A stretch of 64,000 nt of DNA from a phage. The notes below the pieces were generated by a model. The model saw only the letters and a program-made list of their open reading frames with translations. It had not been told where the DNA came from and made no database searches. The DNA is taken from sequence record OZ346222.1, one strand, 5' to 3'. Position 1 is the stretch's first letter. Every line of letters begins with the position of its first letter. This document shows positions 4,317 to 61,555 of this stretch, one piece after another. The translations under genes and the position numbers were made by a program.

Positions 4317-4508
4317 ATGGTAATTTTTAATCGAGACGGTATCATAGTTAGACAGCACCCATTCCTTGAATACTATCAAATTGAGCAATGGTGCTACGGG
4401 GATTGCAGTCACTCCTATGGGCAAAGTTGGGGATATCGCACAGTTTTTGAATCAACAGATCTTGATAAGGTAAGACAGAAAGTTTTAGAACTTATTAACA
4501 ACAAGTGA
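4317..4508 (+). CDS. hypothetical protein (63 aa)
   Basis: Track ORF downstream of consensus promoter. Confidence 0.55.
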   Translation: MVIFNRDGIIVRQHPFLEYYQIEQWCYGDCSHSYGQSWGYRTVFESTDLDKVRQKVLELINNK

Positions 4509-7637: not shown

Positions 7638-7665
7638 TTGACACGCTGCAAAATTCAAGTAAACT
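7638..7665 (+). promoter_or_regulatory. sigma70-like promoter with 5' UTR hairpin
   Basis: TTGACA, 16-nt spacer, TAAACT; followed by hairpin GGCGGGAATGTTTCCCGCC and AAAGGA RBS. Confidence 0.45.
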
Positions 7666-7713
7666 AGTCACAAAAGGCGGGAATGTTTCCCGCCAACACA
7701 AAGGAAAAAGATC

Positions 7714-8118
7714 ATGAATAAGAACGTACGCCGCATCATGAACGAACTGGCAAACGATGAAAAAATTATTGACATGCATTTGATCAACATTTGCCGCCGT
7801 TGTGTAACATACAACAACCGCGCCGCAAAAGCGCGTGAGATGAACGCAAAAGGCACCTTAAAGCCATTCCAGGTGGTGGTAAAGGCCATTAAAGATGTAA
7901 CTAATACGGCAAACCAGGTACAGGGGAACACCAACGAGAGTACCAATATTGATCCGGCTTACATCATGAAACGGATCCGGACCTGCAAGAACAAAGAGCA
8001 AGTGTATAATGTCATAGACTGGTTGGATTCTATGGGCGATGTGGTGTACAATAGATTCTCGGCAGCTATTGAGATCCAGCTTGACAGGTTAGACGGTAAA
8101 GTACTTAAAACTTACTAA
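7714..8118 (+). CDS. hypothetical protein (134 aa)
   Basis: Track ORF. Confidence 0.6.
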   Translation: MNKNVRRIMNELANDEKIIDMHLINICRRCVTYNNRAAKAREMNAKGTLKPFQVVVKAIKDVTNTANQVQGNTNESTNIDPAYIMKRIRTCKNKEQVYNVIDWLDSMGDVVYNRFSAAIEIQLDRLDGKVLKTY

Positions 8119-8124
8119 ATTTAT

Positions 8125-8164
8125 TTTTAGATGGCCTTGACTCCAGGGCCATCAATAAAGTAAA
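8125..8164 (+). repeat. conserved intergenic element, copy 1
   Basis: TTTTTAGATGGCCTTGACTCCAGGGCCATCAATAAAGTAAA; palindromic arms GATGGCC/GGCCATC around an embedded TTGACT. Confidence 0.8.
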
Positions 8165-8208
8165 TTAATCTCAGCTAAGCGAAAAAGGGGGCTTTAAGAT
8201 GAGCACTA

Positions 8209-8318
8209 CACGCCAATACACAAAGGTAACTATTATCGCCTGCGTTGTCGGTTACATCCTGGCGCAAATGTTAATGAGTAGCGCTAACAGTTTTGCAAAA
8301 TTTTTCTTAAATTTTTAA
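8209..8318 (+). CDS. hypothetical hydrophobic micro-protein (36 aa)
   Basis: Below track cutoff; purine-rich RBS then ATG; hydrophobic core. Confidence 0.3.
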
Positions 8319-8346
8319 TTGACAAGCTAACTTAGATTGATATACT
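8319..8346 (+). promoter_or_regulatory. sigma70-like promoter
   Basis: TTGACA, 16-nt spacer, TATACT. Confidence 0.5.
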
Positions 8347-8397
8347 TAAACACGTAAACGGGAAAACTTCCCAGAACACACAAAAGGAGAAAACACC

Positions 8398-8739
8398 ATG
8401 ACTACTATGGCCGCCGCAGAAAAAGCTATTCAGATCGCCGCACTGAAAAAACAGATCGCAGACCTTGAGAACAAGATCGATAACTTTGAAATCGACGAGG
8501 ACAAGTACGACGAAAACTATGATGAATGGTTAGACGAGATCTACGGCGAAATTATGATCGGAAACATTTCTTTTCTTCCGTCGCGTATCCTCAAGGAGCT
8601 AGATCCTATCGCTTACCGCTGCGGATTTAGCGACTACATCGACAGCCTGGATATTGAGGACGATGAAGAATACCAGGAATTACAGACAGAGTTAGAAGAA
8701 GCAAAAGAAGAGCTTGCAGAACTGGAAGAAAACGAGTAA
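8398..8739 (+). CDS. hypothetical acidic coiled-coil protein (113 aa)
   Basis: Track ORF; AAAGGAGAA RBS. Confidence 0.6.
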   Translation: MTTMAAAEKAIQIAALKKQIADLENKIDNFEIDEDKYDENYDEWLDEIYGEIMIGNISFLPSRILKELDPIAYRCGFSDYIDSLDIEDDEEYQELQTELEEAKEELAELEENE

Positions 8740-8745
8740 GATTAT

Positions 8746-8785
8746 TTTTAGATGGCCTTGACTCCAGGGCCATCAATAAAGTAAA
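8746..8785 (+). repeat. conserved intergenic element, copy 2
   Basis: Identical 40-mer to copy 1. Confidence 0.8.
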
Positions 8786-8828
8786 CTTTATACTGTTAAC
8801 ACTGAACTAATGCATAGGAGTTAAAACC

Positions 8829-9074
8829 ATGGCAGCACTAATCACCAAATATTATGCCCCTACCAACACCAAAAGCGCCCGTATCATGGTAAAAGGCTTC
8901 GGACGTAAAAAGGTGTACACCTGGGATTATGCCTTAGACACGGAAGACAACTACACCAACGCGATGACCGATTTTATTAATGATCTGAACACGCGGATCT
9001 TGACAAATTATAAAATTACCGATATTGCCTATATAGGGGAAGGCGGGATCTGTTTTGTCGGTATCGTCAAATAA
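8829..9074 (+). CDS. hypothetical protein (81 aa)
   Basis: Track ORF; TAGGAG RBS. Confidence 0.6.
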   Translation: MAALITKYYAPTNTKSARIMVKGFGRKKVYTWDYALDTEDNYTNAMTDFINDLNTRILTNYKITDIAYIGEGGICFVGIVK

Positions 9075-9080
9075 GCTGTT

Positions 9081-9120
9081 TTTTCGGTGGTCCTGGTAGC
9101 AGGGCCATCTATAAAGATAG
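9081..9120 (+). repeat. conserved intergenic element, diverged copy
   Basis: TTTTCGGTGGTCCTGGTAGCAGGGCCATCTATAAAGATAG, same position class after a stop codon. Confidence 0.5.
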
Positions 9121-9149
9121 TTTATCAATACAATGAAAGGAGAAAGTAC

Positions 9150-9503
9150 ATGATCAGCGGGGCAAGTTTTATTATTGGCGCTATTGCTACGGCTTTAATT
9201 GTAAACAAGATCCAATCTAAAAACGAAAAAGATAGCAACGCCCTTACAGAATACCCGTTTTGGGTATTCAACGACAATGAAGACTATATTATCAAGTACA
9301 AGAATGAGAAGGGCGACCAGGTAACACCGCGACCGATCCCGGCTTACAAGATGCAAGAAACACTATACCGCCTAAAGGCTGGAGGCGCAAAAATCGTAGA
9401 CTTTTGGGGATACGATCACACAGATCAGGAAGTTATAAAGCGCCGTATCCGGGCTATTCAGGCCAATATTGAAGTTAGCAAGGGGGGAATATATGAAGAT
9501 TAA
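9150..9503 (+). CDS. membrane protein (117 aa)
   Basis: Track ORF 9087..9503 trimmed to ATG after AAAGGAGAAAG RBS; N-terminal TM helix. Confidence 0.55.
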   Translation: MISGASFIIGAIATALIVNKIQSKNEKDSNALTEYPFWVFNDNEDYIIKYKNEKGDQVTPRPIPAYKMQETLYRLKAGGAKIVDFWGYDHTDQEVIKRRIRAIQANIEVSKGGIYED

Positions 9504-9690
9504 TTTTGAGAAGATTGTAAAGCGATCTCATGCTTCCGAAGAGCTGCCGGAACGCCGCCAGCGCAACAATAAACTGAATAAGCCAAAAAGATTTGGGAAG
9601 ATCTGGCGGAATCATTATGATCGCAAATTACCGGGCCTGCTTTTGGAACGTGAACGACAGGCGGAACGATACCGCCACAAAGGCAAATAA
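9493..9690 (+). CDS. hypothetical basic protein (65 aa)
   Basis: Track ORF 9469..9690 trimmed to ATG after AAGGGGGGA RBS. Confidence 0.45.
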   Translation: MKINFEKIVKRSHASEELPERRQRNNKLNKPKRFGKIWRNHYDRKLPGLLLERERQAERYRHKGK

Positions 9691-9698
9691 CAACCAAC

Positions 9699-9726
9699 GC
9701 CCCGCCATTGTGCGGGGCTTTTTATT
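9699..9726 (+). terminator. intrinsic terminator
   Basis: GCCCCGC cattgt GCGGGGC followed by TTTTTATTT. Confidence 0.7.
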
Positions 9727-9871
9727 TCTATCCTACGAATAGCGCCCCTGGTTGGCCCTGTAAGCGCCAAAAAGGCCCCACCTATGCAATCGCCCACCTT
9801 TAACCTGAAAACATCGCTTAGGGCCGTTTTATGGCGTTAAAAATATCATTGACAGTGATTTTATTTAAAGC

Positions 9872-9899
9872 TTGACATCTTAAACAGGTTAGCTATACT
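9872..9899 (+). promoter_or_regulatory. sigma70-like promoter
   Basis: TTGACA, 16-nt spacer, TATACT. Confidence 0.55.
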
Positions 9900-9933
9900 A
9901 ACCACATCAAAGAGAGAGAAAGGAGTAAACGCC

Positions 9934-10194
9934 ATGCGTAAATTAAAAAATTTTGATAAAGTTGATGTTGTCCTGAATAATTTTTACTACTGCAACAACA
10001 AGGCCATTTGGTGGCGTGATAGTTCCACCGATAAAGTCAAGGCGCGCTTTCTCCAGGGGCACTGGCAAGGCCGCCCAGTGATTAAAATCATGGGGCAATT
10101 GGTAGCGTTTAAAAATTGCCGCCGTGTTGATGACGTTGAAGAGATCTTGAATATTTTACGCCACAATAATTTAAAAAATAGTGTTGACAAGTAA
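9934..10194 (+). CDS. hypothetical protein (86 aa)
   Basis: Track ORF; GAAAGGAG RBS. Confidence 0.6.
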   Translation: MRKLKNFDKVDVVLNNFYYCNNKAIWWRDSSTDKVKARFLQGHWQGRPVIKIMGQLVAFKNCRRVDDVEEILNILRHNNLKNSVDK

Positions 10195-10211
10195 ATCTCA
10201 ATAAGTATACT
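10184..10211 (+). promoter_or_regulatory. sigma70-like promoter with 5' UTR hairpin
   Basis: TTGACA, 16-nt spacer, TATACT; hairpin GGCGGGAAGTTTTCCCGCC follows. Confidence 0.5.
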
Positions 10212-10268
10212 TAAGCACACAGGCGGGAAGTTTTCCCGCCACTAACAAAGAAAATAGGAGAAAATATC

Positions 10269-10892
10269 ATGACCACCGTTAACATTACCACAGGTTGCAA
10301 TTTATCTTTCGACGTGCTGACCGACGAACAAAAAGAAAAAGCTGTTGAAATGGTCCGCGAAAGAGAAGAACACAGCGGGGATAACTTTTTTGCAGAAAGT
10401 GTAATTGAATACTATAAAGAATATGTTTTTCCAGAGTACGGGCTTGAAGATACCAAGGTACAGTGGTCCGGCTTTTGGTGTCAAGGCGACGGCGCATCAA
10501 TTAGCGCTGAAAATGTAAACTTAGAAAAATTCTTGCGTAAGGTTAAAGCGCTTACAAAATTTCGCTCAATTAGACACTTGTTCGGCACAATGCACGATGG
10601 CGAACTATCAGCCAGCGTTGAACGTATCCCGTTTAGCCATTATCATCACGAAAACACAATAGGCGGGTGCATCGATACCAACTGGCTAGACCTGACCACC
10701 AAGCAAGAGGATAAAATTGAAGAGCTGGAAGAGCTGATCACCGAGACGGTACGGGAGCTATCCCGCAAGGTTTACGTAGACCTGGAGCAGGCCTATCTTG
10801 AACAATTCACTACCGAAAACCTGATCGGCCTTATCGAGGCCAATGATTGGCGGTTTGATGTGGATGAGTATGGCGAGATGACTTTTTCATAA
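10269..10892 (+). CDS. hypothetical protein (207 aa)
   Basis: Track ORF; TAGGAGAA RBS. Confidence 0.65.
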   Translation: MTTVNITTGCNLSFDVLTDEQKEKAVEMVREREEHSGDNFFAESVIEYYKEYVFPEYGLEDTKVQWSGFWCQGDGASISAENVNLEKFLRKVKALTKFRSIRHLFGTMHDGELSASVERIPFSHYHHENTIGGCIDTNWLDLTTKQEDKIEELEELITETVRELSRKVYVDLEQAYLEQFTTENLIGLIEANDWRFDVDEYGEMTFS

Positions 10893-10900
10893 ATAAAGTG

Positions 10901-10929
10901 TTGCAATAACCTAAAAACCTGCTATATTA
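10901..10929 (+). promoter_or_regulatory. sigma70-like promoter with 5' UTR hairpin
   Basis: TTGCAA, 17-nt spacer, TATATT; hairpin GGGGCAAGACGTTTGCCCC follows. Confidence 0.45.
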
Positions 10930-10981
10930 AAACTCAAGGGGCAAGACGTTTGCCCCCACACAAAACAAAGAGGAAAACATC

Positions 10982-11362
10982 ATGAAAAACACTACTAAAG
11001 CTATTGACACCGTTATGTTTAACCTGGTTACCTTTCGCGAGGATATGAAAGATCTTCCACGTGAAACAGTGTGCGATCACATTGAAAACTATCGCAAACT
11101 AATCAAAGAGTTGCCTTTAAAACGTGACCAGTATGCGGCTAACGCCATGCTTAATGCCATGATCAAAAAGATGATTCAGTGTGATTTAACTCTGGCCTAT
11201 GACTATGCGGGTGGTCGTTTTGCAGTATACAATCAGCCCGTGCCCGGTATGGGCACCACCGAAGAATTGCACGCGCTCAATCTAAAACAAGACGTATGGG
11301 ATAACATGCCCCGCGTGGTGGTGTGGGCAGAAAGCGGAAAGATTTACGGCGATAATTTTTAA
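10982..11362 (+). CDS. hypothetical protein (126 aa)
   Basis: Track ORF; AAGAGGAAA RBS. Confidence 0.6.
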   Translation: MKNTTKAIDTVMFNLVTFREDMKDLPRETVCDHIENYRKLIKELPLKRDQYAANAMLNAMIKKMIQCDLTLAYDYAGGRFAVYNQPVPGMGTTEELHALNLKQDVWDNMPRVVVWAESGKIYGDNF

Positions 11363-11373
11363 TCAGGTAACAG

Positions 11374-11397
11374 GCGGCATATTTGCCGCCTTATTGT
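11374..11397 (+). terminator. probable intrinsic terminator
   Basis: GGCGGCA tatt TGCCGCC followed by TTATTGTT. Confidence 0.45.
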
Positions 11398-11426
11398 TAA
11401 ACAGAGTTGCAAAAGAGGTACATAGA

Positions 11427-11798
11427 ATGGAATTTATTATTTTGGCTGTAGTAGTTGCCTTGTTCAACGCCTGGATCGCTGGCAAGATGGGTAGATCCGC
11501 CTTTTTATGGTTTATTATATCTATTTTCCTGGGGGTGGTTGCAACTATTGTACTTGTTATCCTTGCAATTGTTGACAAGGGGAATAATAGAAAGGGTAAA
11601 GTATTTTCAGACCTGTACGACGCTCAAACGTTTGTCAACGCCTATTATAGTGATCTTCCAGTCTCCCTACGCTGCAGCCTGGCACAACAAGTTTTCGATG
11701 AGGCTAAAACCAGAGATCAAGCCCATGAGATATGTTTAACTGAGGCGGATCGCCTATTTGAGAGGAATAGAAAATATGTGGGCCAACCGTTTAAATAA
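11427..11798 (+). CDS. membrane protein (123 aa, two predicted TM helices)
   Basis: Track ORF 11394..11798 trimmed to ATG after AAAGAGG RBS. Confidence 0.55.
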   Translation: MEFIILAVVVALFNAWIAGKMGRSAFLWFIISIFLGVVATIVLVILAIVDKGNNRKGKVFSDLYDAQTFVNAYYSDLPVSLRCSLAQQVFDEAKTRDQAHEICLTEADRLFERNRKYVGQPFK

Positions 11799-12021
11799 TG
11801 CCACGTTAATTAATCCCTTTAGTGAAGATTTGAAGCCAGCCGCCTGGCGTGATGGATTCAATAACGAACGCTTTATTTTCAAGCCTGATCTTGAGGAATT
11901 TTATAACAATGGATCGAACAACAGCGGAGATAATTTTTCTTGGGATGTGCGTGGTGATGGTACTCCTGGGGGCCATTGTAAACCACGTCACTACTACCAG
12001 GAGGAAAGAGGGAGACGATGA
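11776..12021 (+). CDS. hypothetical protein (81 aa)
   Basis: Track ORF 11758..12021 trimmed to ATG after GAGAGGA RBS. Confidence 0.45.
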   Translation: MWANRLNNATLINPFSEDLKPAAWRDGFNNERFIFKPDLEEFYNNGSNNSGDNFSWDVRGDGTPGGHCKPRHYYQEERGRR

Positions 12022-12137
12022 CAACCAAGGATAAGCCCCGTACCGATAAGGCGCGCCGGGTTATGGTATGGCTTGAGATCATCGCCCTTGAAATATTGCT
12101 AGGCGTAGGGATGTACTTTATCGCTGTAAGTAACTAA
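12018..12137 (+). CDS. hypothetical membrane micro-protein (39 aa)
   Basis: Below track cutoff; ATGA overlap with upstream stop; hydrophobic C-terminus. Confidence 0.3.
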   Translation: MTTKDKPRTDKARRVMVWLEIIALEILLGVGMYFIAVSN

Positions 12138-12141
12138 GAGC

Positions 12142-12170
12142 GGCCCCCGATCATGGGGGCCTATCTTTTA
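12142..12170 (+). terminator. intrinsic terminator
   Basis: GGCCCCC gatcat GGGGGCC followed by TATCTTTT. Confidence 0.7.
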
Positions 12171-12191
12171 AAAAATTTTTCTTCCGGGGTG

Positions 12192-12219
12192 TTGCAATCC
12201 GGTCCGGAATGTGGATAAT
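12192..12219 (+). promoter_or_regulatory. sigma70-like promoter with 5' UTR hairpin
   Basis: TTGCAA, 16-nt spacer, GATAAT; the -10 region contains TGTGGATAA (DnaA-box-like); hairpin GGGGAGCTAATCCCC follows. Confidence 0.5.
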
Positions 12220-12275
12220 AACAATCAACGGGGAGCTAATCCCCACCACCACAAAAACCAGAAAGGAGAAACAAA

Positions 12276-12476
12276 ATGAGCAACAATATCCGCGTTATTA
12301 ACTTCAAAAAAGAAGAAAAAATTGCCGTGCTGATTGACGGTCAAGAAATCTTCAAGGGCGACTATGAAGATCATCAAACGGCGATTAGTATCACTCGCGT
12401 GATTGGTTATCATAATTTCTACCCCCAAGGCGCTGAGGCAGCAGTTAAACGAATCAAAGAGATTGTAGGCCTGTAA
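12276..12476 (+). CDS. hypothetical protein (66 aa)
   Basis: Track ORF; AAAGGAGAA RBS. Confidence 0.55.
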   Translation: MSNNIRVINFKKEEKIAVLIDGQEIFKGDYEDHQTAISITRVIGYHNFYPQGAEAAVKRIKEIVGL

Positions 12477-12483
12477 AATTTAT

Positions 12484-12524
12484 TTTTAGATGGCCTTGAC
12501 TTCAGGGCCATCGATAAAGTAAAT
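12484..12524 (+). repeat. conserved intergenic element, copy 3
   Basis: TTTTTAGATGGCCTTGACTTCAGGGCCATCGATAAAGTAAA, two mismatches to copies 1 and 2. Confidence 0.8.
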
Positions 12525-12560
12525 TTAAACCCTGTTAAAATACCACGCAGTTAACAAGGA

Positions 12561-12869
12561 GTGATAGACATGTTTATCCAGGCTAATAATCTTTATTTCT
12601 TTGATGGTCAGATCGTAGATGGTGTGGAAGTGGAGATCACCGGGTGCCCTGGCGGTCAGGCTATGACTTTTCGGAATAATGCCTTTGATGATTCTCATAT
12701 CGTTATGAGAATGGAAGTTACGAAGCTGGACGACAAGAAAACACTTATTGACTATTCTGTGAAAGATCATCCAGACTACCGCATGATCCATGGTGATTTG
12801 TGCATTGTTGACCGTGACAAGGTGGGCGGCATTGTGATCGCTATTGTGAACGATGTTTTCTCAAACTAA
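12561..12869 (+). CDS. hypothetical protein (102 aa)
   Basis: Track ORF; AAGGAG RBS. Confidence 0.6.
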   Translation: MIDMFIQANNLYFFDGQIVDGVEVEITGCPGGQAMTFRNNAFDDSHIVMRMEVTKLDDKKTLIDYSVKDHPDYRMIHGDLCIVDRDKVGGIVIAIVNDVFSN

Positions 12870-12886
12870 TTTCAGCAGGCGATTTT

Positions 12887-13237
12887 ATGAAAGTCAAACT
12901 ATATTACCTTAATGAGCTTAACCCCCTTGCCCAGGTCCGCGCCCTAGCTAATACCTTGATTTGTGAGAAATCTGTATATTGTGTTGAGCTTAACGCCATG
13001 CGTGAACGTCTCAAAGGTGGTTACTTTGACATCCATGCTGCAATCAACGGCCTGAATATGGAATTTATACGCTTACGTAACAGCCGCCGGAATCTGGCAA
13101 GAATGGAACAAGATCCGGCCCACCTTCGTAAGCTGGTTATTGAAAATCATCTGATGTTTAATGCCGAGGGTGATTATTACCATTTTCACCGCAAACGCTG
13201 GTACCGTGGCGGCAATACAGGCAAGAATGCAAAATAA
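12887..13237 (+). CDS. hypothetical protein (116 aa)
   Basis: Track ORF. Confidence 0.55.
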   Translation: MKVKLYYLNELNPLAQVRALANTLICEKSVYCVELNAMRERLKGGYFDIHAAINGLNMEFIRLRNSRRNLARMEQDPAHLRKLVIENHLMFNAEGDYYHFHRKRWYRGGNTGKNAK

Positions 13238-13272
13238 GGCCCCTAGCAGGGCCTGCAGCAATATAATCACAT

Positions 13273-13306
13273 AAAGGCCATGCGGTTGCATGGCCTTTAT
13301 TATTTT
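13273..13306 (+). terminator. intrinsic terminator
   Basis: AAAGGCCATGC ggtt GCATGGCCTTT followed by ATTATTTT. Confidence 0.7.
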
Positions 13307-13354
13307 GGCGTTACAACGGCATACGGGGCGCTTAAAAAATTTTTAAAGAAGTAC

Positions 13355-13382
13355 TTGCATCATTCCCGACAATATGGATAAT
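13355..13382 (+). promoter_or_regulatory. sigma70-like promoter with 5' UTR hairpin
   Basis: TTGCAT, 16-nt spacer, GATAAT; hairpin GGGGGAGGCCCCC follows. Confidence 0.5.
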
Positions 13383-13439
13383 AAGAGTTGTCGAGGGGGA
13401 GGCCCCCAATCGTTGACCAGATAGATAGGAGTTAAAATC

Positions 13440-13724
13440 ATGGCTATTGTTACCGCTGGCGATGTAGTAGAAATGGAAGCAAAATACTTAAAAGCGGGTA
13501 TGCACATCCTACGGAATGATCAAGAGCTATTATTAACGATGGTTGACTATAATCACGGCCAGGATTATCCAAGCATCGACTACTTTTTTGAGTATGTTGA
13601 TGAAGAGTTGAAAGAGGATGAGGCCTATTGCGGTGAGTTCTGCAACTTCTTTTGTCCTGATGAGGTTGTAAAGGTTATTTATCAACCTGGCGTAGCTTTC
13701 CCGCTGCACGCTATCAATAAATAA
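13440..13724 (+). CDS. hypothetical protein (94 aa)
   Basis: Track ORF; TAGGAG RBS. Confidence 0.6.
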   Translation: MAIVTAGDVVEMEAKYLKAGMHILRNDQELLLTMVDYNHGQDYPSIDYFFEYVDEELKEDEAYCGEFCNFFCPDEVVKVIYQPGVAFPLHAINK

Positions 13725-13779
13725 ACCTGGCGGGGCCGAAAAGGCCCCCAATTATGAAAATAAAGAGAGGCAAATCATC

Positions 13780-14013
13780 ATGATGGAACAAATTAAACGC
13801 GCCGAGGCTATTAATGGCAACGTGATCTATTTTGTCAGCAAAAACGAAAAAGGCGTACCATATGCGGCAGTAATAGTACAACCTGACGGCGATTATTGGT
13901 TTACTGTGTACGGCGCTTATTCTTTTGGGCGTCCAGTGCATGATAAAATTTTGAAAGTAGCGAACCCTACCGGGAAGAATATCACAGCAGAAAAATTTTT
14001 TGAAAATAGTTGA
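13780..14013 (+). CDS. hypothetical protein (77 aa)
   Basis: Track ORF; AAGAGAGG RBS; preceded by hairpin GGGGCCGAAAAGGCCCC. Confidence 0.55.
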   Translation: MMEQIKRAEAINGNVIYFVSKNEKGVPYAAVIVQPDGDYWFTVYGAYSFGRPVHDKILKVANPTGKNITAEKFFENS

Positions 14014-14038
14014 CATGACCATATAAGACTGTAATATA
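14010..14038 (+). promoter_or_regulatory. sigma70-like promoter with 5' UTR hairpin
   Basis: TTGACA, 17-nt spacer, TAATAT; hairpin GGGGGCAACGAACCCC follows. Confidence 0.5.
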
Positions 14039-14088
14039 TAAATCAAAGGGGGCAACGAACCCCACCAACTACAAAGAGGATAAAAATC

Positions 14089-14268
14089 ATGGCTATTATT
14101 GCAAAGACTGAGATCATAGGCTTAGATTCTATTCTCCTCGCATATGAGGAAGCTATAGAAATGTATGTGGTTTCCTATGGTGAGTATATCCGTGAATATA
14201 AATCTATTGATCTGGCTTTTGAATGTTATATCCGCCAGGTTAATAAAGCGTACGATGATTATCGTTAA
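14089..14268 (+). CDS. hypothetical protein (59 aa)
   Basis: Below track cutoff; AAAGAGGATAAAAATC then ATG; open to TAA. Confidence 0.45.
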   Translation: MAIIAKTEIIGLDSILLAYEEAIEMYVVSYGEYIREYKSIDLAFECYIRQVNKAYDDYR

Positions 14269-14274
14269 AATAGT

Positions 14275-14303
14275 TTGACAACAGCCATCTTACAAAGCAT
14301 AAT
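14275..14303 (+). promoter_or_regulatory. sigma70-like promoter with 5' UTR hairpin
   Basis: TTGACA, 17-nt spacer, CATAAT; hairpin GGCGGTGGAATGGTCCGCCACC follows. Confidence 0.5.
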
Positions 14304-14355
14304 ACATAAGGCGGTGGAATGGTCCGCCACCTGGAACAAAGAAGAGGTAAACACC

Positions 14356-14601
14356 ATGAAAAGCAATAAAGGTTATAACGGTTACAAAAACAAAACTCAT
14401 TGGAATGTAAGCCTTTGGATTAATAACGATGAGTCATTGTACCGGTTGGCCCAAGGCTTTATTAACGCCAATGCTAATCGTAATGATGCGGCGCGGGATA
14501 TGATGCTTTTTCTGGAGCTAACCGGACAAGATAAGACCCTGGACGGCTTCAAGTACAGCACTACGGCGATCCGTGCCGCGATGGTTGGAATGAAACACTA
14601 A
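14356..14601 (+). CDS. hypothetical protein (81 aa)
   Basis: Track ORF 14275..14601 trimmed to ATG after AAGAAGAGG RBS. Confidence 0.55.
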   Translation: MKSNKGYNGYKNKTHWNVSLWINNDESLYRLAQGFINANANRNDAARDMMLFLELTGQDKTLDGFKYSTTAIRAAMVGMKH

Positions 14602-14792
14602 AAGCACATAGCTGCCTTACCCTGGGGCTGTGGTAGCGGCCCCATGAATAAGGTTACTAACAGAAGAGAATAAACACCATGAAACAGAAATTAATCGATG
14701 CAGTGATCTTGGTTATTGCCCTGGGTATTGGCCTGATTGCAACCATGTCTAATATGATCTTGTCTTCCAACGGTATCGGGTGAGGTTGGCAA

Positions 14793-15008
14793 ATGATCAC
14801 TAACAAAACAGGCAAAACGGAATTTTTACGCAACTTACAGATCGGCAAGCCTGAGATCTGGTACTGCACTAAAACACCGCGTGACGAAATGAAAGACTTC
14901 ACCGCCACGCTGCAACGGGTAAAGATATCTATCACGCAGAAAAAGGCCTTACTAGTGGTGGAAGGGGAGATCCCCCAAACCGTTGTTATAGTTGATCGTA
15001 CAGCATAG
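14793..15008 (+). CDS. hypothetical protein (71 aa)
   Basis: Track ORF. Confidence 0.5.
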   Translation: MITNKTGKTEFLRNLQIGKPEIWYCTKTPRDEMKDFTATLQRVKISITQKKALLVVEGEIPQTVVIVDRTA

Positions 15009-15099
15009 TTTAATTTATACAGATACCTGAAAATTAACCAACAAAGCATAAACAGGCGGTTACCGCCGCCTTAAACGTAGCAGAAAGAGGATAGGCACA

Positions 15100-15384
15100 A
15101 TGAAAAAGATGATCGCAGTGGTTACCCTGGTTGTTGGACTTAATGCGCCTGTAATGGCTAAAGAGCTGGCAAAAGAGGTTAATCTAACGGATATTCATGC
15201 CGTCAATCAAATCGGGGTTACTTATCGCTTATGCCTTGCCGCTAAAACTTTTAAGGACGGCACAACAGAGTACTACGGATTCGAGGGTATCCGGTGCGGT
15301 GAGCTTGCTCGCGACCTTAAGGAAGATCCAGACCTGGAGGATCTGCCCATAACCGTGAACGGGAAAACTTACGTGAACCGTTAA
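15100..15384 (+). CDS. secreted protein with N-terminal signal peptide (94 aa)
   Basis: Track ORF; AAAGAGGATAGG RBS; MKKMIAVVTLVVGLNAPVMA signal-like N-terminus. Confidence 0.6.
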   Translation: MKKMIAVVTLVVGLNAPVMAKELAKEVNLTDIHAVNQIGVTYRLCLAAKTFKDGTTEYYGFEGIRCGELARDLKEDPDLEDLPITVNGKTYVNR

Positions 15385-15529
15385 CCATGAGAAAGATAAT
15401 TATTACCATGGGGATCGTGGCGGCAATGTTGGCGATCTTTCCCTTTATGGTTAGGTATGTGCTGATTAATGTTGTCCTGGTAGTCAGCGATCTGGTGTTA
15501 TATATTAACTCATTGTTTTAGGCGCGATA

Positions 15530-15721
15530 ATGACAGCGGAAGAAGTTAAAAAAGTACTGGCGGTACTGCGTTATCATAATCATTGCAAGGTGAAGAATGA
15601 TCCTGATTATCTTGATTCATCCCTTGAAGAGGATACACTACAAGCCATAAGCAACATGCAAGAATTGCTTAAGCGTATGACAGAGAAAAACCGACCGGAC
15701 TACATAGGGGGTAAAATATGA
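15530..15721 (+). CDS. hypothetical protein (63 aa)
   Basis: Track ORF. Confidence 0.5.
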   Translation: MTAEEVKKVLAVLRYHNHCKVKNDPDYLDSSLEEDTLQAISNMQELLKRMTEKNRPDYIGGKI

Positions 15722-16029
15722 TCGCTATTACGCCAACCGTTTTAGATTGGTATCGGCAACGCATAGCGCCTCCGCTGGCTATCTTCAAAGATGCGGAAGC
15801 AAAACAACGCCGGATCTCAATACATGAGATCATCAACCTTAACGCTGGAGGCACACCATACCGCCCAGGACCTGGCCGTGAGATGGACAATACATTGGCG
15901 ATCCTGAAGATACGCCGTAAACGGTCCTCCCTTACGCTGGATTCATTACACACAATGCAGTCTCCGTTCCAGGTGACTGGGAAACGGATCGCCAGGTCCT
16001 GGACAAAGGCCAATGACCGGACCGTATAA
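15718..16029 (+). CDS. hypothetical protein (103 aa)
   Basis: Track ORF; ATGA coupling to upstream gene. Confidence 0.5.
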   Translation: MIAITPTVLDWYRQRIAPPLAIFKDAEAKQRRISIHEIINLNAGGTPYRPGPGREMDNTLAILKIRRKRSSLTLDSLHTMQSPFQVTGKRIARSWTKANDRTV

Positions 16030-16165
16030 ATAAAAAGTGTTTTGGTACTGATTTTGGGGTTGACTTGTTCGGCCCCTTTTGCTATTCTTATTAAACGGGC
16101 GGCACTTGGGAACAGGGGGAGACAATCACCAGGCCTGCCTGTCATATAAGAACTATAAAAACCGT

Positions 16166-16195
16166 TGACATCTGCCAGGGGGTGGGGTAACATTT
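16166..16195 (+). promoter_or_regulatory. sigma70-like promoter with 5' UTR hairpin
   Basis: TTGACA, 17-nt spacer, TAACAT; hairpin GGGGCAAAGGTGCCCC follows. Confidence 0.5.
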
Positions 16196-16247
16196 ATCTT
16201 GAAGGGGCAAAGGTGCCCACACAACAACCAGAAGAGAGGAAAACACT

Positions 16248-16520
16248 ATGTCAAGCTGGATTAATCAAGAAGTCGAATCACGTTTTAATGCTATTTGGGA
16301 TCTCATCGAAAAAGAAGACGGCACATCAAGCCCCTACCTCAACAATTTGGAATTCCATTTTGTGGAAGCGATGAACGCAGAACATGATCACGAAGGTGGT
16401 GCGGACGAGTTCGCTAAAGGGTATGGCTTCAACAATGCCAACGAAATGATCGAGGCGGTTGTACTCCAGGCTGAGGAAGATTATCAATTAAAAACGCTTG
16501 AATTCTGCCGCCGCAAGTAA
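16248..16520 (+). CDS. hypothetical acidic protein (90 aa)
   Basis: Track ORF; AGAGAGGAAAA RBS. Confidence 0.55.
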   Translation: MSSWINQEVESRFNAIWDLIEKEDGTSSPYLNNLEFHFVEAMNAEHDHEGGADEFAKGYGFNNANEMIEAVVLQAEEDYQLKTLEFCRRK

Positions 16521-16580
16521 TAAGATAATGACACGGGCCGGGAGGCCCACTAATCAGAACCACACAAAGAGGTAAACATC

Positions 16581-16844
16581 ATGAAACGTCTTGATCAGCT
16601 TAAACTAGTTCAGTACATGGCCTACAAAGTTCTTGAAGTCCAAAAAGGTAGCAAAAAAGAGGTTTGCGAGAAAGCGTACAAGATCTTTACCCGTAAAAAA
16701 GATGATTGGATGTTACGCCAGACCAAAAAAGCCGATATCTTGGGGTACCTGGAAGAAGAGATCCGACTTGAAGAGCAAGAAGAGATCCGCCGCAGTGAGG
16801 CAGATTATCAGGCAGCCTGGGAAAACTGGATGAGCAACAAATAA
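16581..16844 (+). CDS. hypothetical protein (87 aa)
   Basis: Track ORF; AAAGAGG RBS; 5' UTR hairpin GGGCCGGGAGGCCC. Confidence 0.55.
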   Translation: MKRLDQLKLVQYMAYKVLEVQKGSKKEVCEKAYKIFTRKKDDWMLRQTKKADILGYLEEEIRLEEQEEIRRSEADYQAAWENWMSNK

Positions 16845-16910
16845 TACAACAAGTTGCACGATCAGGGGGCAATAAAGCCCCTTGATCACATAAAAATTAT
16901 GCTATCCTTG

Positions 16911-16940
16911 GTTGACAAGGATCGGCAGTTTTGCTATATT
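16911..16940 (+). promoter_or_regulatory. sigma70-like promoter
   Basis: TTGACA, 17-nt spacer, TATATT. Confidence 0.55.
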
Positions 16941-16988
16941 CTTTTTGAAGGGAAGTTGTAAGAAAATTAACTAAGAGGTAAAAACACC

Positions 16989-17408
16989 ATGAACATTAAA
17001 TCTAATAATCCGGCATATAGCTTTGATAACGCTTTTTGTCACGGTCCGGCGGCGAAAGGATTCGAAATCGATGGTAAACTAATTATTGTCAATGTTGACG
17101 GGGAAGAGGTTGCAGTATATCCGGTGGCAGACGTAAAAAGCCGTTTACAATGCCGCATGGATGTTACCGCCTATCAGCTTGATCCGGTCCGCATAGTTGC
17201 CCTGGTCCTGGAAGAAGAAATTAAAGCCATGCACCATAGCAACAGATTTATTGGTGACGCGCAGGATAATATGAAAGTATGCCGCCATAAAGTTAATGAA
17301 GTGCTTAAAGAGTACGGCTATAAAGATCTTATGATCAAACGTGAGGAAAAATTCCGCTACCGTAACGACCTGGCAAATCGGATTTTTGAAATATACGAAT
17401 CATTATAA
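16989..17408 (+). CDS. hypothetical protein (139 aa)
   Basis: Track ORF; TAAGAGG RBS. Confidence 0.6.
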   Translation: MNIKSNNPAYSFDNAFCHGPAAKGFEIDGKLIIVNVDGEEVAVYPVADVKSRLQCRMDVTAYQLDPVRIVALVLEEEIKAMHHSNRFIGDAQDNMKVCRHKVNEVLKEYGYKDLMIKREEKFRYRNDLANRIFEIYESL

Positions 17409-17426
17409 TTTTTTAACTGAATTATC

Positions 17427-17452
17427 AAGGGGCTTAGGCCCCTTTCTTTTTG
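17427..17452 (+). terminator. intrinsic terminator closing the rightward early array
   Basis: AAGGGGC tta GGCCCCTT followed by TCTTTTT. Confidence 0.7.
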
Positions 17453-48011: not shown

Positions 48012-48592
48012 TAAGCATCTGCGAGATCGGCCTTACCTTGTACCAAATTGATCCCATCTAGGAACCCAGGTTCAGATACTTCGCAGGCCTTAACCATCAA
48101 CTTTTTATCCATCGTAACAGGTTTCTTCACAGTATGCTCTTTACCTGTCTTTTTGTCAAGCTTTTTCTTCTCCTCGAAAGCAAGTTCCTCAGGAAGATGA
48201 CCACGAGCAAACTTTTTGGCAGTTGTTGGTGTCACTGTGTGGACCTTAAACAGGCCGTCATTTTCACAATCCGCTAAGGCATCCCAAAGCATAACTTCAA
48301 GACCGTAAAACAACCCAGCCAGTTCACGTGTGGCATCCCCGCGTGATCCAAAGGAAAGCCCTTCCATAACTACAGTGTCAACGCCGTGCGTGTGGATATA
48401 ATATCTGACCTGTTTGCAGATCCAGTCAATACGCTCAGCAGCTGTTGCAAAAGAAACCGTCCCTGGTTTCTTCTCTTTTGCAGATGAGCTTTGAGTTCGT
48501 AACACAACCTTATGAACAGGCTTTCCATCGTCCCATACAACGCAAGCTGTGTGTGTCAACGACTGGTCTATGGATAATAGACGCTCTCTCAT
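47963..48592 (-). CDS. RuvC-like Holliday junction resolvase
   Basis: Track ORF; LSIDQS (Asp), MEGLSFG (Glu), KADLADAYWIGRAH (Asp pair) in RuvC order. Confidence 0.6.
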   Translation of the reverse strand: MRERLLSIDQSLTHTACVVWDDGKPVHKVVLRTQSSSAKEKKPGTVSFATAAERIDWICKQVRYYIHTHGVDTVVMEGLSFGSRGDATRELAGLFYGLEVMLWDALADCENDGLFKVHTVTPTTAKKFARGHLPEELAFEEKKKLDKKTGKEHTVKKPVTMDKKLMVKACEVSEPGFLDGINLVQGKADLADAYWIGRAHLEGLSQSVK

Positions 48593-60742: not shown

Positions 60743-60817
60743 GCCCTGTTAGCTTAGTGGATAAAGCAGCGGCCTTCTAAGCCGTTGACACTGGTTCGAG
60801 TCCAGTACGGGGTGCCA
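60743..60817 (+). tRNA. tRNA-Arg (anticodon TCT)
   Basis: Manual fold: 7-bp acceptor with G-U pairs, anticodon loop CTTCTAA, T-loop TTCGAGT, 3' CCA encoded. Confidence 0.7.
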
Positions 60818-60821
60818 AATT

Positions 60822-60908
60822 GGGGAGTTATCCCGTAGAGGTAGCGGTGTAGACTGTAAATCTATTGTCATTGCGACTCGGGTGGTTCGACTCCACCACT
60901 CCCCACCA
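60822..60908 (+). tRNA. tRNA-Tyr (anticodon GTA), long variable arm
   Basis: Acceptor GGGGAGT/ACTCCCC, anticodon loop CTGTAAA, long extra arm, T-loop TTCGACT, CCA encoded. Confidence 0.75.
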
Positions 60909-61022
60909 AATTTATATTTTTAGATGCATAAATAATACAGATAATGGCATTGATATTTATCGTCGTTTATACTAGTCACTAACTGCTCGAAAATCAGTGT
61001 CATTATCAGTATAATTTATAAA

Positions 61023-61113
61023 GGAGGGTAGGGAGCAATGGTGCTCAAGCGGTATTGAAAACCGTCCCGTTGAGGATGACTCGATGATGGTTCGATTCCA
61101 TTACTCTCCGCCA
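61023..61113 (+). tRNA. tRNA-Ser (anticodon TGA), long variable arm
   Basis: Acceptor GGAGGGT/ACTCTCC, anticodon loop ATTGAAA, about 20-nt extra arm, T-loop TTCGATT, CCA encoded. Confidence 0.7.
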
Positions 61114-61211
61114 CATTGTTGACCTTGTAATTAAGCGAAAGCCGGAAGCAGAACCGGATTATCAAATGTTACAGTCGTCATCGCCGACTAGCAACATGGT
61201 CAACATACTGA

Positions 61212-61308
61212 GCTAGGTAAGCCCTTTGGCAAGGGCGAGGATTTTTAATCCTGAAAATAGACGAGGTAGTCGTTGAATACATAGGTGGTTCGATTCCATC
61301 ACCTAGCA
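61212..61308 (+). tRNA. atypical tRNA-like gene (possible anticodon TTT) with about 30-nt extra arm
   Basis: Acceptor GCTAGGT/ACCTAGC, D-arm GCCC/GGGC, 4-bp anticodon stem with loop TTTTTAA, T-arm GGTGG TTCGATT CCATC; no CCA; extra region too long for a canonical tRNA. Confidence 0.35.
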
Positions 61309-61315
61309 CCTTTTT

Positions 61316-61391
61316 GCTGATGTAGCACAATCGGTAGTGCAATTGATTTGTAATCAATAGGTTGTAGGTTCAAGTCCTGCCATCAGCACCA
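61316..61391 (+). tRNA. tRNA-Thr (anticodon TGT)
   Basis: Acceptor GCTGATG/CATCAGC, anticodon stem ATTGA/TCAAT with loop TTTGTAA, T-loop TTCAAGT, CCA encoded. Confidence 0.75.
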
Positions 61392-61392
61392 A

Positions 61393-61467
61393 GGCCCTGT
61401 AGCTGGAAGGTTCAAGCAAGCGACTCATAATCGCCAGACGGTGGTTCAATTCCACCCAGGGCCACCA
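61393..61467 (+). tRNA. tRNA-Met or Ile2 (anticodon CAT), elongator type
   Basis: Acceptor GGCCCTG/CAGGGCC (G1-C72 paired), anticodon loop CTCATAA, T-loop TTCAATT, CCA encoded. Confidence 0.7.
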
Positions 61468-61478
61468 AATAGTAAATA

Positions 61479-61555
61479 CTCCGCGTAGCTCAGCTTGGTA
61501 GAGCGCCTGATTTGGGATCAGGAGGTCGAGTGTTCGAATCACTCCGTGGAGACCA
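61479..61555 (+). tRNA. tRNA-Pro (anticodon TGG)
   Basis: Acceptor CTCCGCG/CGTGGAG, anticodon stem CCTGA/TCAGG with loop TTTGGGA, T-loop TTCGAAT, CCA encoded. Confidence 0.75.

Follow-up and report, generated by a model that had tools for sequence, protein, structure and literature searches.

Ten small genes between 7.6 and 16.6 kb of the phage sequence OZ346222.1, of which a stretch of 64,000 nucleotides (nt; hereafter the window) was analyzed, are each preceded by a compact expression cassette that closely resembles the promoter-early stem-loop (PeSL) cassettes of T4-type phages. Each comprises an AT-rich stretch, the -35 and -10 elements of a host-type, σ70-like promoter, a short G/C hairpin, a leader, a Shine-Dalgarno (SD) site and the ATG, in that order. 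The hairpins are placed non-randomly with respect to the promoters, and it is their base pairing, rather than their sequence, that is conserved. The most likely role of the element, which we propose tentatively, is that of a 5'-proximal RNA stem-loop that stabilizes and insulates the early mRNAs. The phage belongs to the rV5-like coliphages, genus Vequintavirus (303 phage records matched by megablast), and over 9 kb shares 96.7% identity with phage A6-1 and 96.4% with rV5_ev168.

Architecture of the cassettes

The 5' regions of the + strand genes were aligned on their ATG codons and folded, and were then scanned for promoters and hairpins; promoters were scored as the number of matches out of 12 to TTGACA-N16/17-TATAAT. 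The promoters of the ten cassettes (Table 1) score 8-11/12. Their hairpins follow the -10 element after 6-13 nt, possess G/C stems of 4-8 base pairs (bp) and end 19-32 nt before the ATG, an interval which includes a GAGG or AGGAG site. When three further hairpins without a clear promoter are included, the folding free energies (dG) of the thirteen range from -5.5 to -17, the arms consisting of G-runs followed by C-runs. The 22 nt upstream of the promoters are 77% AT, versus 57% for the window as a whole. Repeat families span the leader, the SD and the ATG. For the predicted 5' untranslated regions (UTRs) the folding z-score averages -2.2, and the SD is mostly unpaired in the predicted folds of both the RNA initiated at the cassette's own promoter and the read-through RNA. 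The same geometry is found over 57 unique copies from five genera: the gap between the -10 and the hairpin has a mode of 10 nt (most are 8-12), and the hairpin ends 18-32 nt before the ATG.

This layout is a real pattern in the window. It had been noticed in an initial annotation of the sequence, which described at least nine early genes with a promoter, hairpin and ribosome-binding site; the fold and promoter scan yields ten, and the two hairpins quoted at that time, GGCGGGAATGTTTCCCGCC and GGCGGGAAGTTTTCCCGCC, are those at 7676-7694 and 10222-10240. Several details require revision. The loops, given as 4-6 nt, are 3-9 nt and often 3, and the hairpins, placed 15-25 nt upstream of the ribosome-binding site, end 7-20 nt before the SD. 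Of the stems, that at 14050 has just 4 bp (5 bp in relatives) and that at 8360 just 3 G-C pairs. The leader had been called CA-rich; C is indeed its second most common base, but A dominates (A 54%, C 19%, G 17%, T 10%), and T is depleted relative to leaders lacking a hairpin (20%) and to the region (25%).

The placement of the hairpins relative to the promoters is not a matter of chance. Perfect stems of ≥5 bp with ≥4 G-C pairs occur 77 times in the 64 kb (1.2 per kb); four of the 14 + strand promoters scoring ≥10/12 have one that starts 5-15 nt past the -10, where 0.19 would be expected (Poisson p = 4e-5). The same count in related genera gives 17/22 and 13/16 for Phapecoctavirus and 9/16 for Justusliebigvirus (p = 1e-19 to 1e-12). 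The scan recovered 46 promoter-like sites versus 30 ± 5 in shuffled sequences, and elsewhere in the 64 kb, on either strand, merely 2-3 scattered sites pass the same criteria.

Conservation of base pairing

An IMG/VR search with a 207-amino acid (aa) protein returned just two close relatives, and orthologous sites were hence taken from eight other Vequintavirus genomes in GenBank (L001-L006, L011 and L012). Across these orthologs the hairpin is nearly always retained while its sequence varies. The pairing is under selection: the 46 distinct ortholog variants, which are not phylogenetically independent, have a summed dG of -501.8 kcal/mol versus -264 ± 19 kcal/mol after an equal number of random substitutions, and none of 2000 simulations was as stable. 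In these simulations the window hairpins were substituted at random, and gaps were counted as substitutions.

The changes take several forms. In orthologs of cassette 1 either the loop is flipped or the stem GGCGGGAA/TTCCCGCC is swapped for GGCGGTTGA/TCAGCCGCC; similarly, GGGGCAA/TTGCCCC is exchanged for GGCGGGCGA/TTGCCCGCC. The stems of cassette 4 in L004 and L005 are longer or altered with pairing kept (dG -18.1 and -15.1). At cassette 6, relatives carry GGAGGT-GAT-GCCTCC, in which a G-C pair has become A-U through changes on both sides (GGGGG/CCCCC to GGAGG/CCTCC). The hairpin at 13732-13748 is kept in all relatives (dG -10 to -20), and that at 15054 reads AGGCGG-CGGTGA-CCGCCT in L004. Stems also vary within the window (GGCGGGAA, GGGGCAA, GGGGA, GGGGG, GGGCA, GGGCC, GGGAA), and the 57 unique copies contain 31 different loops with no consensus. 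At two sites the whole hairpin has been reverse-complemented between strains, so that the loop alone is altered: TGT to ACA in cassette 1 (L004, L005 and L012) and GTT to AAC in cassette 3 (L001, L002, L005, L006 and L011). These flips are small inversions produced by template switching inside the palindrome.

Relationship to PeSL cassettes and occurrence in other phages

PeSL cassettes were described in the T4-type phages RB49/phi1, PST and nt-1 (Arbiol et al. 2010, PMC2839356; Comeau et al. 2014, PMC4122927). They consist of a consensus σ70 promoter with AT-rich upstream sequence, a poly-G/poly-C stem-loop and, at the end, an SD and ATG; their genes are mostly of unknown function, and five subclasses are distinguished by the position of the stem-loop, one of them with the stem-loop downstream of the -10 (PMC2839356). 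The cassettes of the window share with them the near-consensus promoter and AT-rich upstream sequence, the G-run/C-run stem-loop, an A/C-rich leader, a strong SD and the closing ATG, their presence in many copies among small genes that lack an assigned function, and cassette junctions at which genes have been inserted, deleted or replaced. In our own scan of RB49 the leaders proved to be of the same style (CATACCGAAACGAAAGGAG...ATG).

The relationship is one of kind, not of shared ancestry. The window lineage is Vequintavirinae whereas the PeSL phages are Straboviridae, and there is no sequence homology: the RB49 stems differ from those of the window and sit elsewhere in the promoter. A blastn search with a cassette of a Stephanstirmvirinae relative (L007) listed rV5-like/phi92-like and T5-like phages, with no Straboviridae among the matches listed. 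In RB49 twelve promoter-linked stem-loops were scored, six in the spacer, five over the -10 and one downstream of it. By comparison, five of seven lie downstream in the window (ten, if weaker promoters are counted), as do 18/20, 14/15 and 10/10 in Stephanstirmvirinae. In the window, therefore, the stem-loop is normally predicted to form part of the cassette's own mRNA, while in RB49 it is mostly inside the promoter.

Among relatives the layout is far more stereotyped in Phapecoctavirus and Justusliebigvirus, with TTGACA-N16-TAnnnT followed by (G)TATCAC(A/G)TAG and GGCGG[C/G]-AAT[A/G]GT-...CCGCC, and the ATG 18-25 nt on; three of the window hairpins are of this GGCGG type. Existing records treat the element inconsistently. 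That of phAPEC8 (L019) labels the 20-mer "putative promoter determined with PHIRE" (556-575, 937-956 and 1787-1806), and that of phage Alma (L002) labels hairpins "terminator" (1939-1963 and 4454-4475). The rV5 genome paper gives 33 promoters and 20 terminators and leaves the hairpins unmentioned; the literature searched yielded no description of promoter/stem-loop cassettes in rV5-like or phi92-like phages, and no start-site or transcriptome study of rV5-like phages. Some annotated gene starts in related phages, as in L007 (6489 and 8527) and L010 (12838 and 14479), correspond to the ATG within the hairpin loop AATGGT (...GTAGGGCGGCAATG) and are probably miscalled.

A 34-nt portion of the Stephanstirmvirinae cassette, comprising the -10 region and TATCACGTAGGGCGGCAATG, is present in one copy, at 88% identity, in many T5-like genomes of Epseptimavirus, close to their left end; in the Salmonella phage ende (L020) it lies at 401-434. 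The match, although its E-value is only 4e-3, suggests that promoter cassettes have been exchanged between phage families.

Proposed function of the stem-loop

Since the -10 elements are near consensus, transcription is expected to start 6-8 nt after them, and the hairpin to be transcribed close to the 5' end. In the window and in Stephanstirmvirinae a stem-loop 6-13 bp past the -10 would be the first structured element of the transcript, at approximately +3 to +25. Being self-contained, it would shorten the single-stranded 5' end required by RppH and RNase E, and would keep the ribosome site free of pairing with sequence further upstream. Uridine is linked to RNase E cleavage; the U-poor leader would present few sites to this enzyme, besides containing no terminator T-tract. 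The remainder of the UTR would be covered by the 30S subunit, the hairpin ending just outside what we take to be its usual footprint. The combined outcome would be stable, well-translated early transcripts, a scheme in which the start position, the stabilization of the mRNA and any influence on its translation are inferred. The mRNAs of ompA, papA and T7 gene 10 have 5'-terminal stabilizing stem-loops, and the cassettes resemble these in combining a short stable hairpin near the 5' end with a leader free of structure and a strong ribosome-binding site. In Escherichia coli 5' secondary structure is an established mRNA stabilizer, both RppH and RNase E being dependent on a single-stranded 5' end (PMC3997798).

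Stabilization by the hairpins was suggested in the initial annotation, and this interpretation is supported in part. The predicted transcribed position of the hairpins, the conserved pairing and the lack of T-tracts accord with an RNA-level element at the 5' end. A number of observations weigh against the more specific idea of a stabilizer. If the start is placed, from sequence, at the best pyrimidine-purine step near position 7-8 after the -10, the predicted single-stranded overhangs of cassettes 1 to 10 are about 4, 3-5, 2, 3, 6-8, 2-5, 3, 0-2, 4 and 2 nt. For RppH and RNase E 2 unpaired nt are enough, with 3 or more being preferred (PMC8833179), and an internal stem-loop barely obstructs scanning by RNase E (PMC11194081). 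Protection would therefore be partial at best, and full protection is doubtful; in this respect the cassettes may depart from ompA, papA and T7 gene 10, a predicted overhang of 2-5 nt being at or past the limit of protection. Furthermore, the stem-loop is within the promoter in several cassettes of the window, in most of those of Certrevirus and in 11/12 of RB49, and these sister cassettes imply some role that is independent of the 5' end of their own RNA. Three or four hairpins lack a recognizable promoter; those at 13732, 14625 and 15054 have the leader and ribosome-binding site of the cassettes without a convincing one.

The evidence for selection at the RNA level is likewise open to objection. 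Column-wise covariation is weak (RNAalifold applied to three ortholog sets found one pair changed on both sides) because the variants differ by indels and MAFFT misplaces the arms; a joint alignment of the paralogs suffered from the same problem, and folding of individual sequences with simulated substitutions was used in place of a covariance model. G.U exceeds A.C among mismatches by about 7:2 for ortholog transitions and 5:3 for unique copies; such an excess would point to the + strand RNA, but is only suggestive. Finally, templated repair within the palindromes could keep the stems perfect without selection on RNA.

Possible action on read-through RNA

The PeSL authors proposed that the stem-loop acts on RNA arriving from upstream, as an attenuator or as a 3' barrier to exonucleases that marks where the upstream message ends. 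Where strong promoters follow one another, transcription would then accumulate less along the row. Nearly all cassettes have a stem-loop, whatever its position (past the -10, on the -10, on the -35 or further upstream), and this indifference to the promoter fits a role at an intergenic boundary and not at a 5' end. The promoter-less copies sit between cistrons, lacZ expression fell to about the same extent with an RB49 PeSL stem-loop as with rrnB T1 (PMC2839356), and, as noted above, the annotators of phage Alma named some of the hairpins terminators. We nevertheless judge this explanation unlikely. The 8 nt past the stems contain 0-3 T, versus 5-7 at the six canonical hairpin and T-tract terminators with which the phage closes groups of genes within these 17 kb (2130, 9718, 11391, 12161, 13300 and 17444); a terminator after a promoter would also halt that promoter's own transcripts; and the tight spacing to the -10 would be left unexplained.

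The same T counts argue against intrinsic termination as such. Like intrinsic and promoter-coupled terminators, the cassettes place a GC-rich hairpin beside a promoter in the short gap between tandem genes, but they lack the T-tract, and in the main class the hairpin follows the promoter rather than preceding it. Terminators reading the opposite strand were also rejected: the upstream A-runs are inconsistent in the window and absent in relatives. Nor does a U-rich upstream region mask the SD in read-through RNA only, the SD being predicted to be about equally open in both RNAs.

Recombination at the cassettes

Alignment breakpoints between the genomes fall at cassettes, and three explicit junctions have cassette homology on both sides. 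In L003 540 bp carrying three genes are inserted between two TTGACA hexamers at 9851; L001 carries an additional gene between two leader copies (16549-16584); and in L002 one chimeric hairpin replaces the module at 16864-17444, which is bounded by stem-loops (Table 1). Three related genomes lack this module, which was apparently excised or inserted through recombination of its stem-loops with each other. The alignments of L002 and L005 stop at 14314, inside the hairpin of cassette 8, beyond which a different hairpin and gene are found. The repeated cassettes also provide homology for the gain, loss and replacement of genes.

Such findings invite the view that the palindromes are sites of recombination or template switching which move promoter-gene modules, that they are kept by templated repair, and that they have little or no function in RNA. 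In its favor, the breakpoints of indels and replacements at 14314, at 16077, and at 16883 together with 17428 lie in or beside hairpins and promoters, the loop flips described above testify to template switching in the DNA, PeSLs recombine and form mini-circles (PMC2839356), and 34 nt of a cassette are common to unrelated T5-like phages. Yet intergenic breaks are to be expected in any case, because breaks within genes are selected against; what recombination requires is homologous sequence, for which no hairpin is needed, and at two of the three junctions this is supplied by the -35 or the leader; and genera whose downstream genes are unrelated keep the hairpin at fixed distances from the -10 and from the ATG, which argues for a role in expression. 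On balance we regard an action mainly at the level of the DNA as improbable, somewhat more so than an action on read-through RNA.

Stem-loops in other positions occur in the same region. Three nearly identical copies of a 50-nt repeat contain a 7-bp palindrome with the -35 TTGACT in its loop. TTTATTTTTA lies before the palindrome and AATAAAGTAAATT after it, and neither strand has a T-tract. The arrangement looks like that of the PeSL subclass whose stem-loop spans the -35, or else like an operator that lies across the promoter. In having a -35 within the stem-loop DNA, all three copies are also similar to the promoter-coupled terminators of Fletcher et al. (2026 preprint, 10.64898/2026.08.19.745784).

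Between 16056 and 16165 there is a promoter (TTGACT-N17-TATTCT) whose -35 is within the hairpin GGGGTTGACTTGTTCGGCCCC. It is followed, before the promoter at 16165, by about 78 nt with no open reading frame that begin GGGCGGCA and fold at -18.7 kcal/mol. The alignments to all six related genomes break at 16077. The stretch could encode a small RNA or be the remnant of a lost gene cassette.

Possible recognition by a dedicated factor

The hairpin might instead be a site shared by many genes for a phage or host factor, either an RNA-binding antiterminator, a translational repressor or nuclease that shuts off the early genes jointly, or a protein bound to a DNA operator just past the start. The sequence-stereotyped element of Phapecoctavirus and Justusliebigvirus, the repeated 20-mer detected by PHIRE and the GGCGG type of three window hairpins all speak for this, but we consider it quite improbable. 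The stems differ within the window, the loops lack a consensus and invert between strains, no boxA-like element was found near the hairpins (the sole match is at 48135), and Rfam gave no match. A single operator is excluded by the same diversity of stems within one genome and by the spacing of the half-sites (13, 14 or 17 nt), which a dimeric DNA-binding protein would not tolerate. Lambdoid nut/boxB antitermination sites similarly place a short hairpin early in each early transcript; the cassettes differ from them in having no conserved loop (31 loops in 57 copies), no boxA and many stems in one genome, and a nut-like site was rejected. Stems of 4-9 bp are too short to be RNase III sites.

An extension of this idea, which we rate as least probable of all, is that the transcribed hairpin, set at a fixed distance from the start site, is a common tag on all early mRNAs of rV5-like and phi92-like phages, of which a phage or host factor would recognize the shape and not the sequence. 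If this were true the tag would be a new class-wide post-transcriptional switch, through which a nuclease or repressor might turn off the early class together, or by which early RNAs might be hidden from the RNA-sensing defences of the host. The initial annotation had likewise raised the possibility of a common regulatory handle; with stems and loops that differ between cassettes, and loops that flip between strains, we do not favor it.

Features of the region and genomic context

Table 1. Promoter/stem-loop cassettes and related elements of the window (promoter scores are matches out of 12; dG, folding free energy)
Feature	Span	Strand	Promoter and start codon	Stem-loop position	Stem-loop and remarks
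Cassette 1	7638..7716	+	TTGACA 7638-N16-TAAACT ending 7665 (10/12); ATG 7714	7676-7694	8 bp, loop TGT, dG -14.6; leader AACACAAAGGAAAAAGATC; loop ACA in some orthologs
Cassette 2	8319..8400	+	TTGACA-N16-TATACT ending 8346 (11/12); ATG 8398	8360-8372	GGGAA-AAC-TTCCC, 5 bp, 3 G-C, dG -5.5; 13 nt past -10
Cassette 3	10184..10271	+	TTGACA-N16-TATACT ending 10211 (11/12); ATG 10269	10222-10240	8 bp, loop GTT; AAC (exact loop flip) in most relatives
Cassette 4	10901..10984	+	TTGCAA-N16-TATATT ending 10928 (9/12); ATG 10982	10938-10956	GGGGCAA-GACGT-TTGCCCC
Cassette 5	12192..12278	+	TTGCAA-N16-GATAAT ending 12219 (9/12); ATG 12276	12230-12244	GGGGA-GCTAA-TCCCC; relatives GGGGAG-ACA-CTCCCC
Cassette 6	13355..13442	+	TTGCAT-N16-GATAAT ending 13382 (8/12); ATG 13440	13395-13407	GGGGG-AGG-CCCCC
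Cassette 7 (weak stem here)	14010..14091	+	TTGACA-N16-TAATAT ending 14037 (10/12); ATG 14089	14050-14063	GGGG/CCCC, 4 bp; most relatives GGGGC-AACAA-GCCCC, 5 bp
Cassette 8	14275..14358	+	TTGACA-N17-CATAAT ending 14303 (11/12); ATG 14356	14310-14328	GGCGGTGGAATGGTCCGCC; just 6 nt past -10
Cassette 9	16165..16250	+	TTGACA-N17-TAACAT ending 16193 (10/12); ATG 16248	16205-16218	GGGCA-AAGG-TGCCC
Cassette 10 (weaker promoter)	16498..16583	+	TTGAAT-N17-TAAGAT ending 16526 (8/12); ATG 16581	16535-16548	GGGCC-GGGA-GGCCC
Hairpin and leader between two genes	13732..13748	+	No recognizable promoter; ATG 13780	13732-13748	GGGGCC-GAAAA-GGCCCC, then CAATTATG...GAGAGG
Hairpin and leader	14625..14646	+	No recognizable promoter; ATG 14679	14625-14646	TGGGGC...GCCCCA, dG -17
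Hairpin and leader	15054..15071	+	No recognizable promoter; ATG 15100	15054-15071	AGGCGG-TTACCG-CCGCCT
Stem-loop over -35, 50-nt repeat copy 1	8117..8166	+	TTGACT-N18-TAAATT		GATGGCC-TTGACTCCAG-GGCCATC
50-nt repeat, further copies	8738-8787, 12476-12525				94-96% identical
50-nt repeat, variant	9073-9122				68%
Stem-loop holding -10	9887..9903	+	TTGACA 9872; -10 TATACT	9887-9903	GGTTAG-CTATA-CTAACC, contains the -10
-35 inside hairpin	16056-16076				
-35 inside hairpin	16904-16922				
Stem-loops bounding movable promoter-gene module	16864..16882	+	Promoter 16912; gene 16989-17408 (139 aa)	16864-16882 and 17427-17444	Similar stem-loops flank promoter and gene

The first 17.4 kb or so of the window are packed with small + strand genes, while from 18 to 58 kb the coding is on the - strand. 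All ten proteins encoded downstream of the hairpin cassettes fall into PHROGs of unknown function; Pfam gave one domain of unknown function and one match under the cutoff for these ten, and nothing more. A search of the whole window against Rfam 15 found no family for the cassette hairpins at the gathering score, the sole matches being six tRNA genes at 60.7-61.6 kb. These form a cluster on the + strand (60743-61552), and two of them are barely over the Rfam threshold. A lone cassette-like site is present in the - strand block at 25722-25702, in which TTGACA-N17-TATCAT is followed after 8 nt by the hairpin AAGAGGG...CCCTCTT and then by an SD and ATG. Between 58279 and 58359 a 17-bp palindrome, TGTCCGTnnnACGGACA, is repeated four times at a spacing of 21-22 bp, adjoining an AT-rich stretch at the end of the - strand block; it resembles an array of operators or iterons to which a dimeric protein would bind.

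Significance

The cassettes reveal no new principle, being the known PeSL-like arrangement, here with a stem-loop that would mostly be transcribed. Their recognition corrects conflicting database annotation, in which one record calls the hairpins terminators, another calls the same hairpins phage-specific promoters, and some gene starts have been placed in the loop. They also constitute a compact natural set of modules, each with a promoter, a 5' hairpin and a ribosome-binding site, which together with their stem variants may be used to gauge how far a 5'-proximal hairpin preceded by few unpaired nt protects mRNA in E. coli. The idea of the mobile regulatory cassette is widened from the T4-type phages to the large group of rV5-like and phi92-like therapeutic coliphages.

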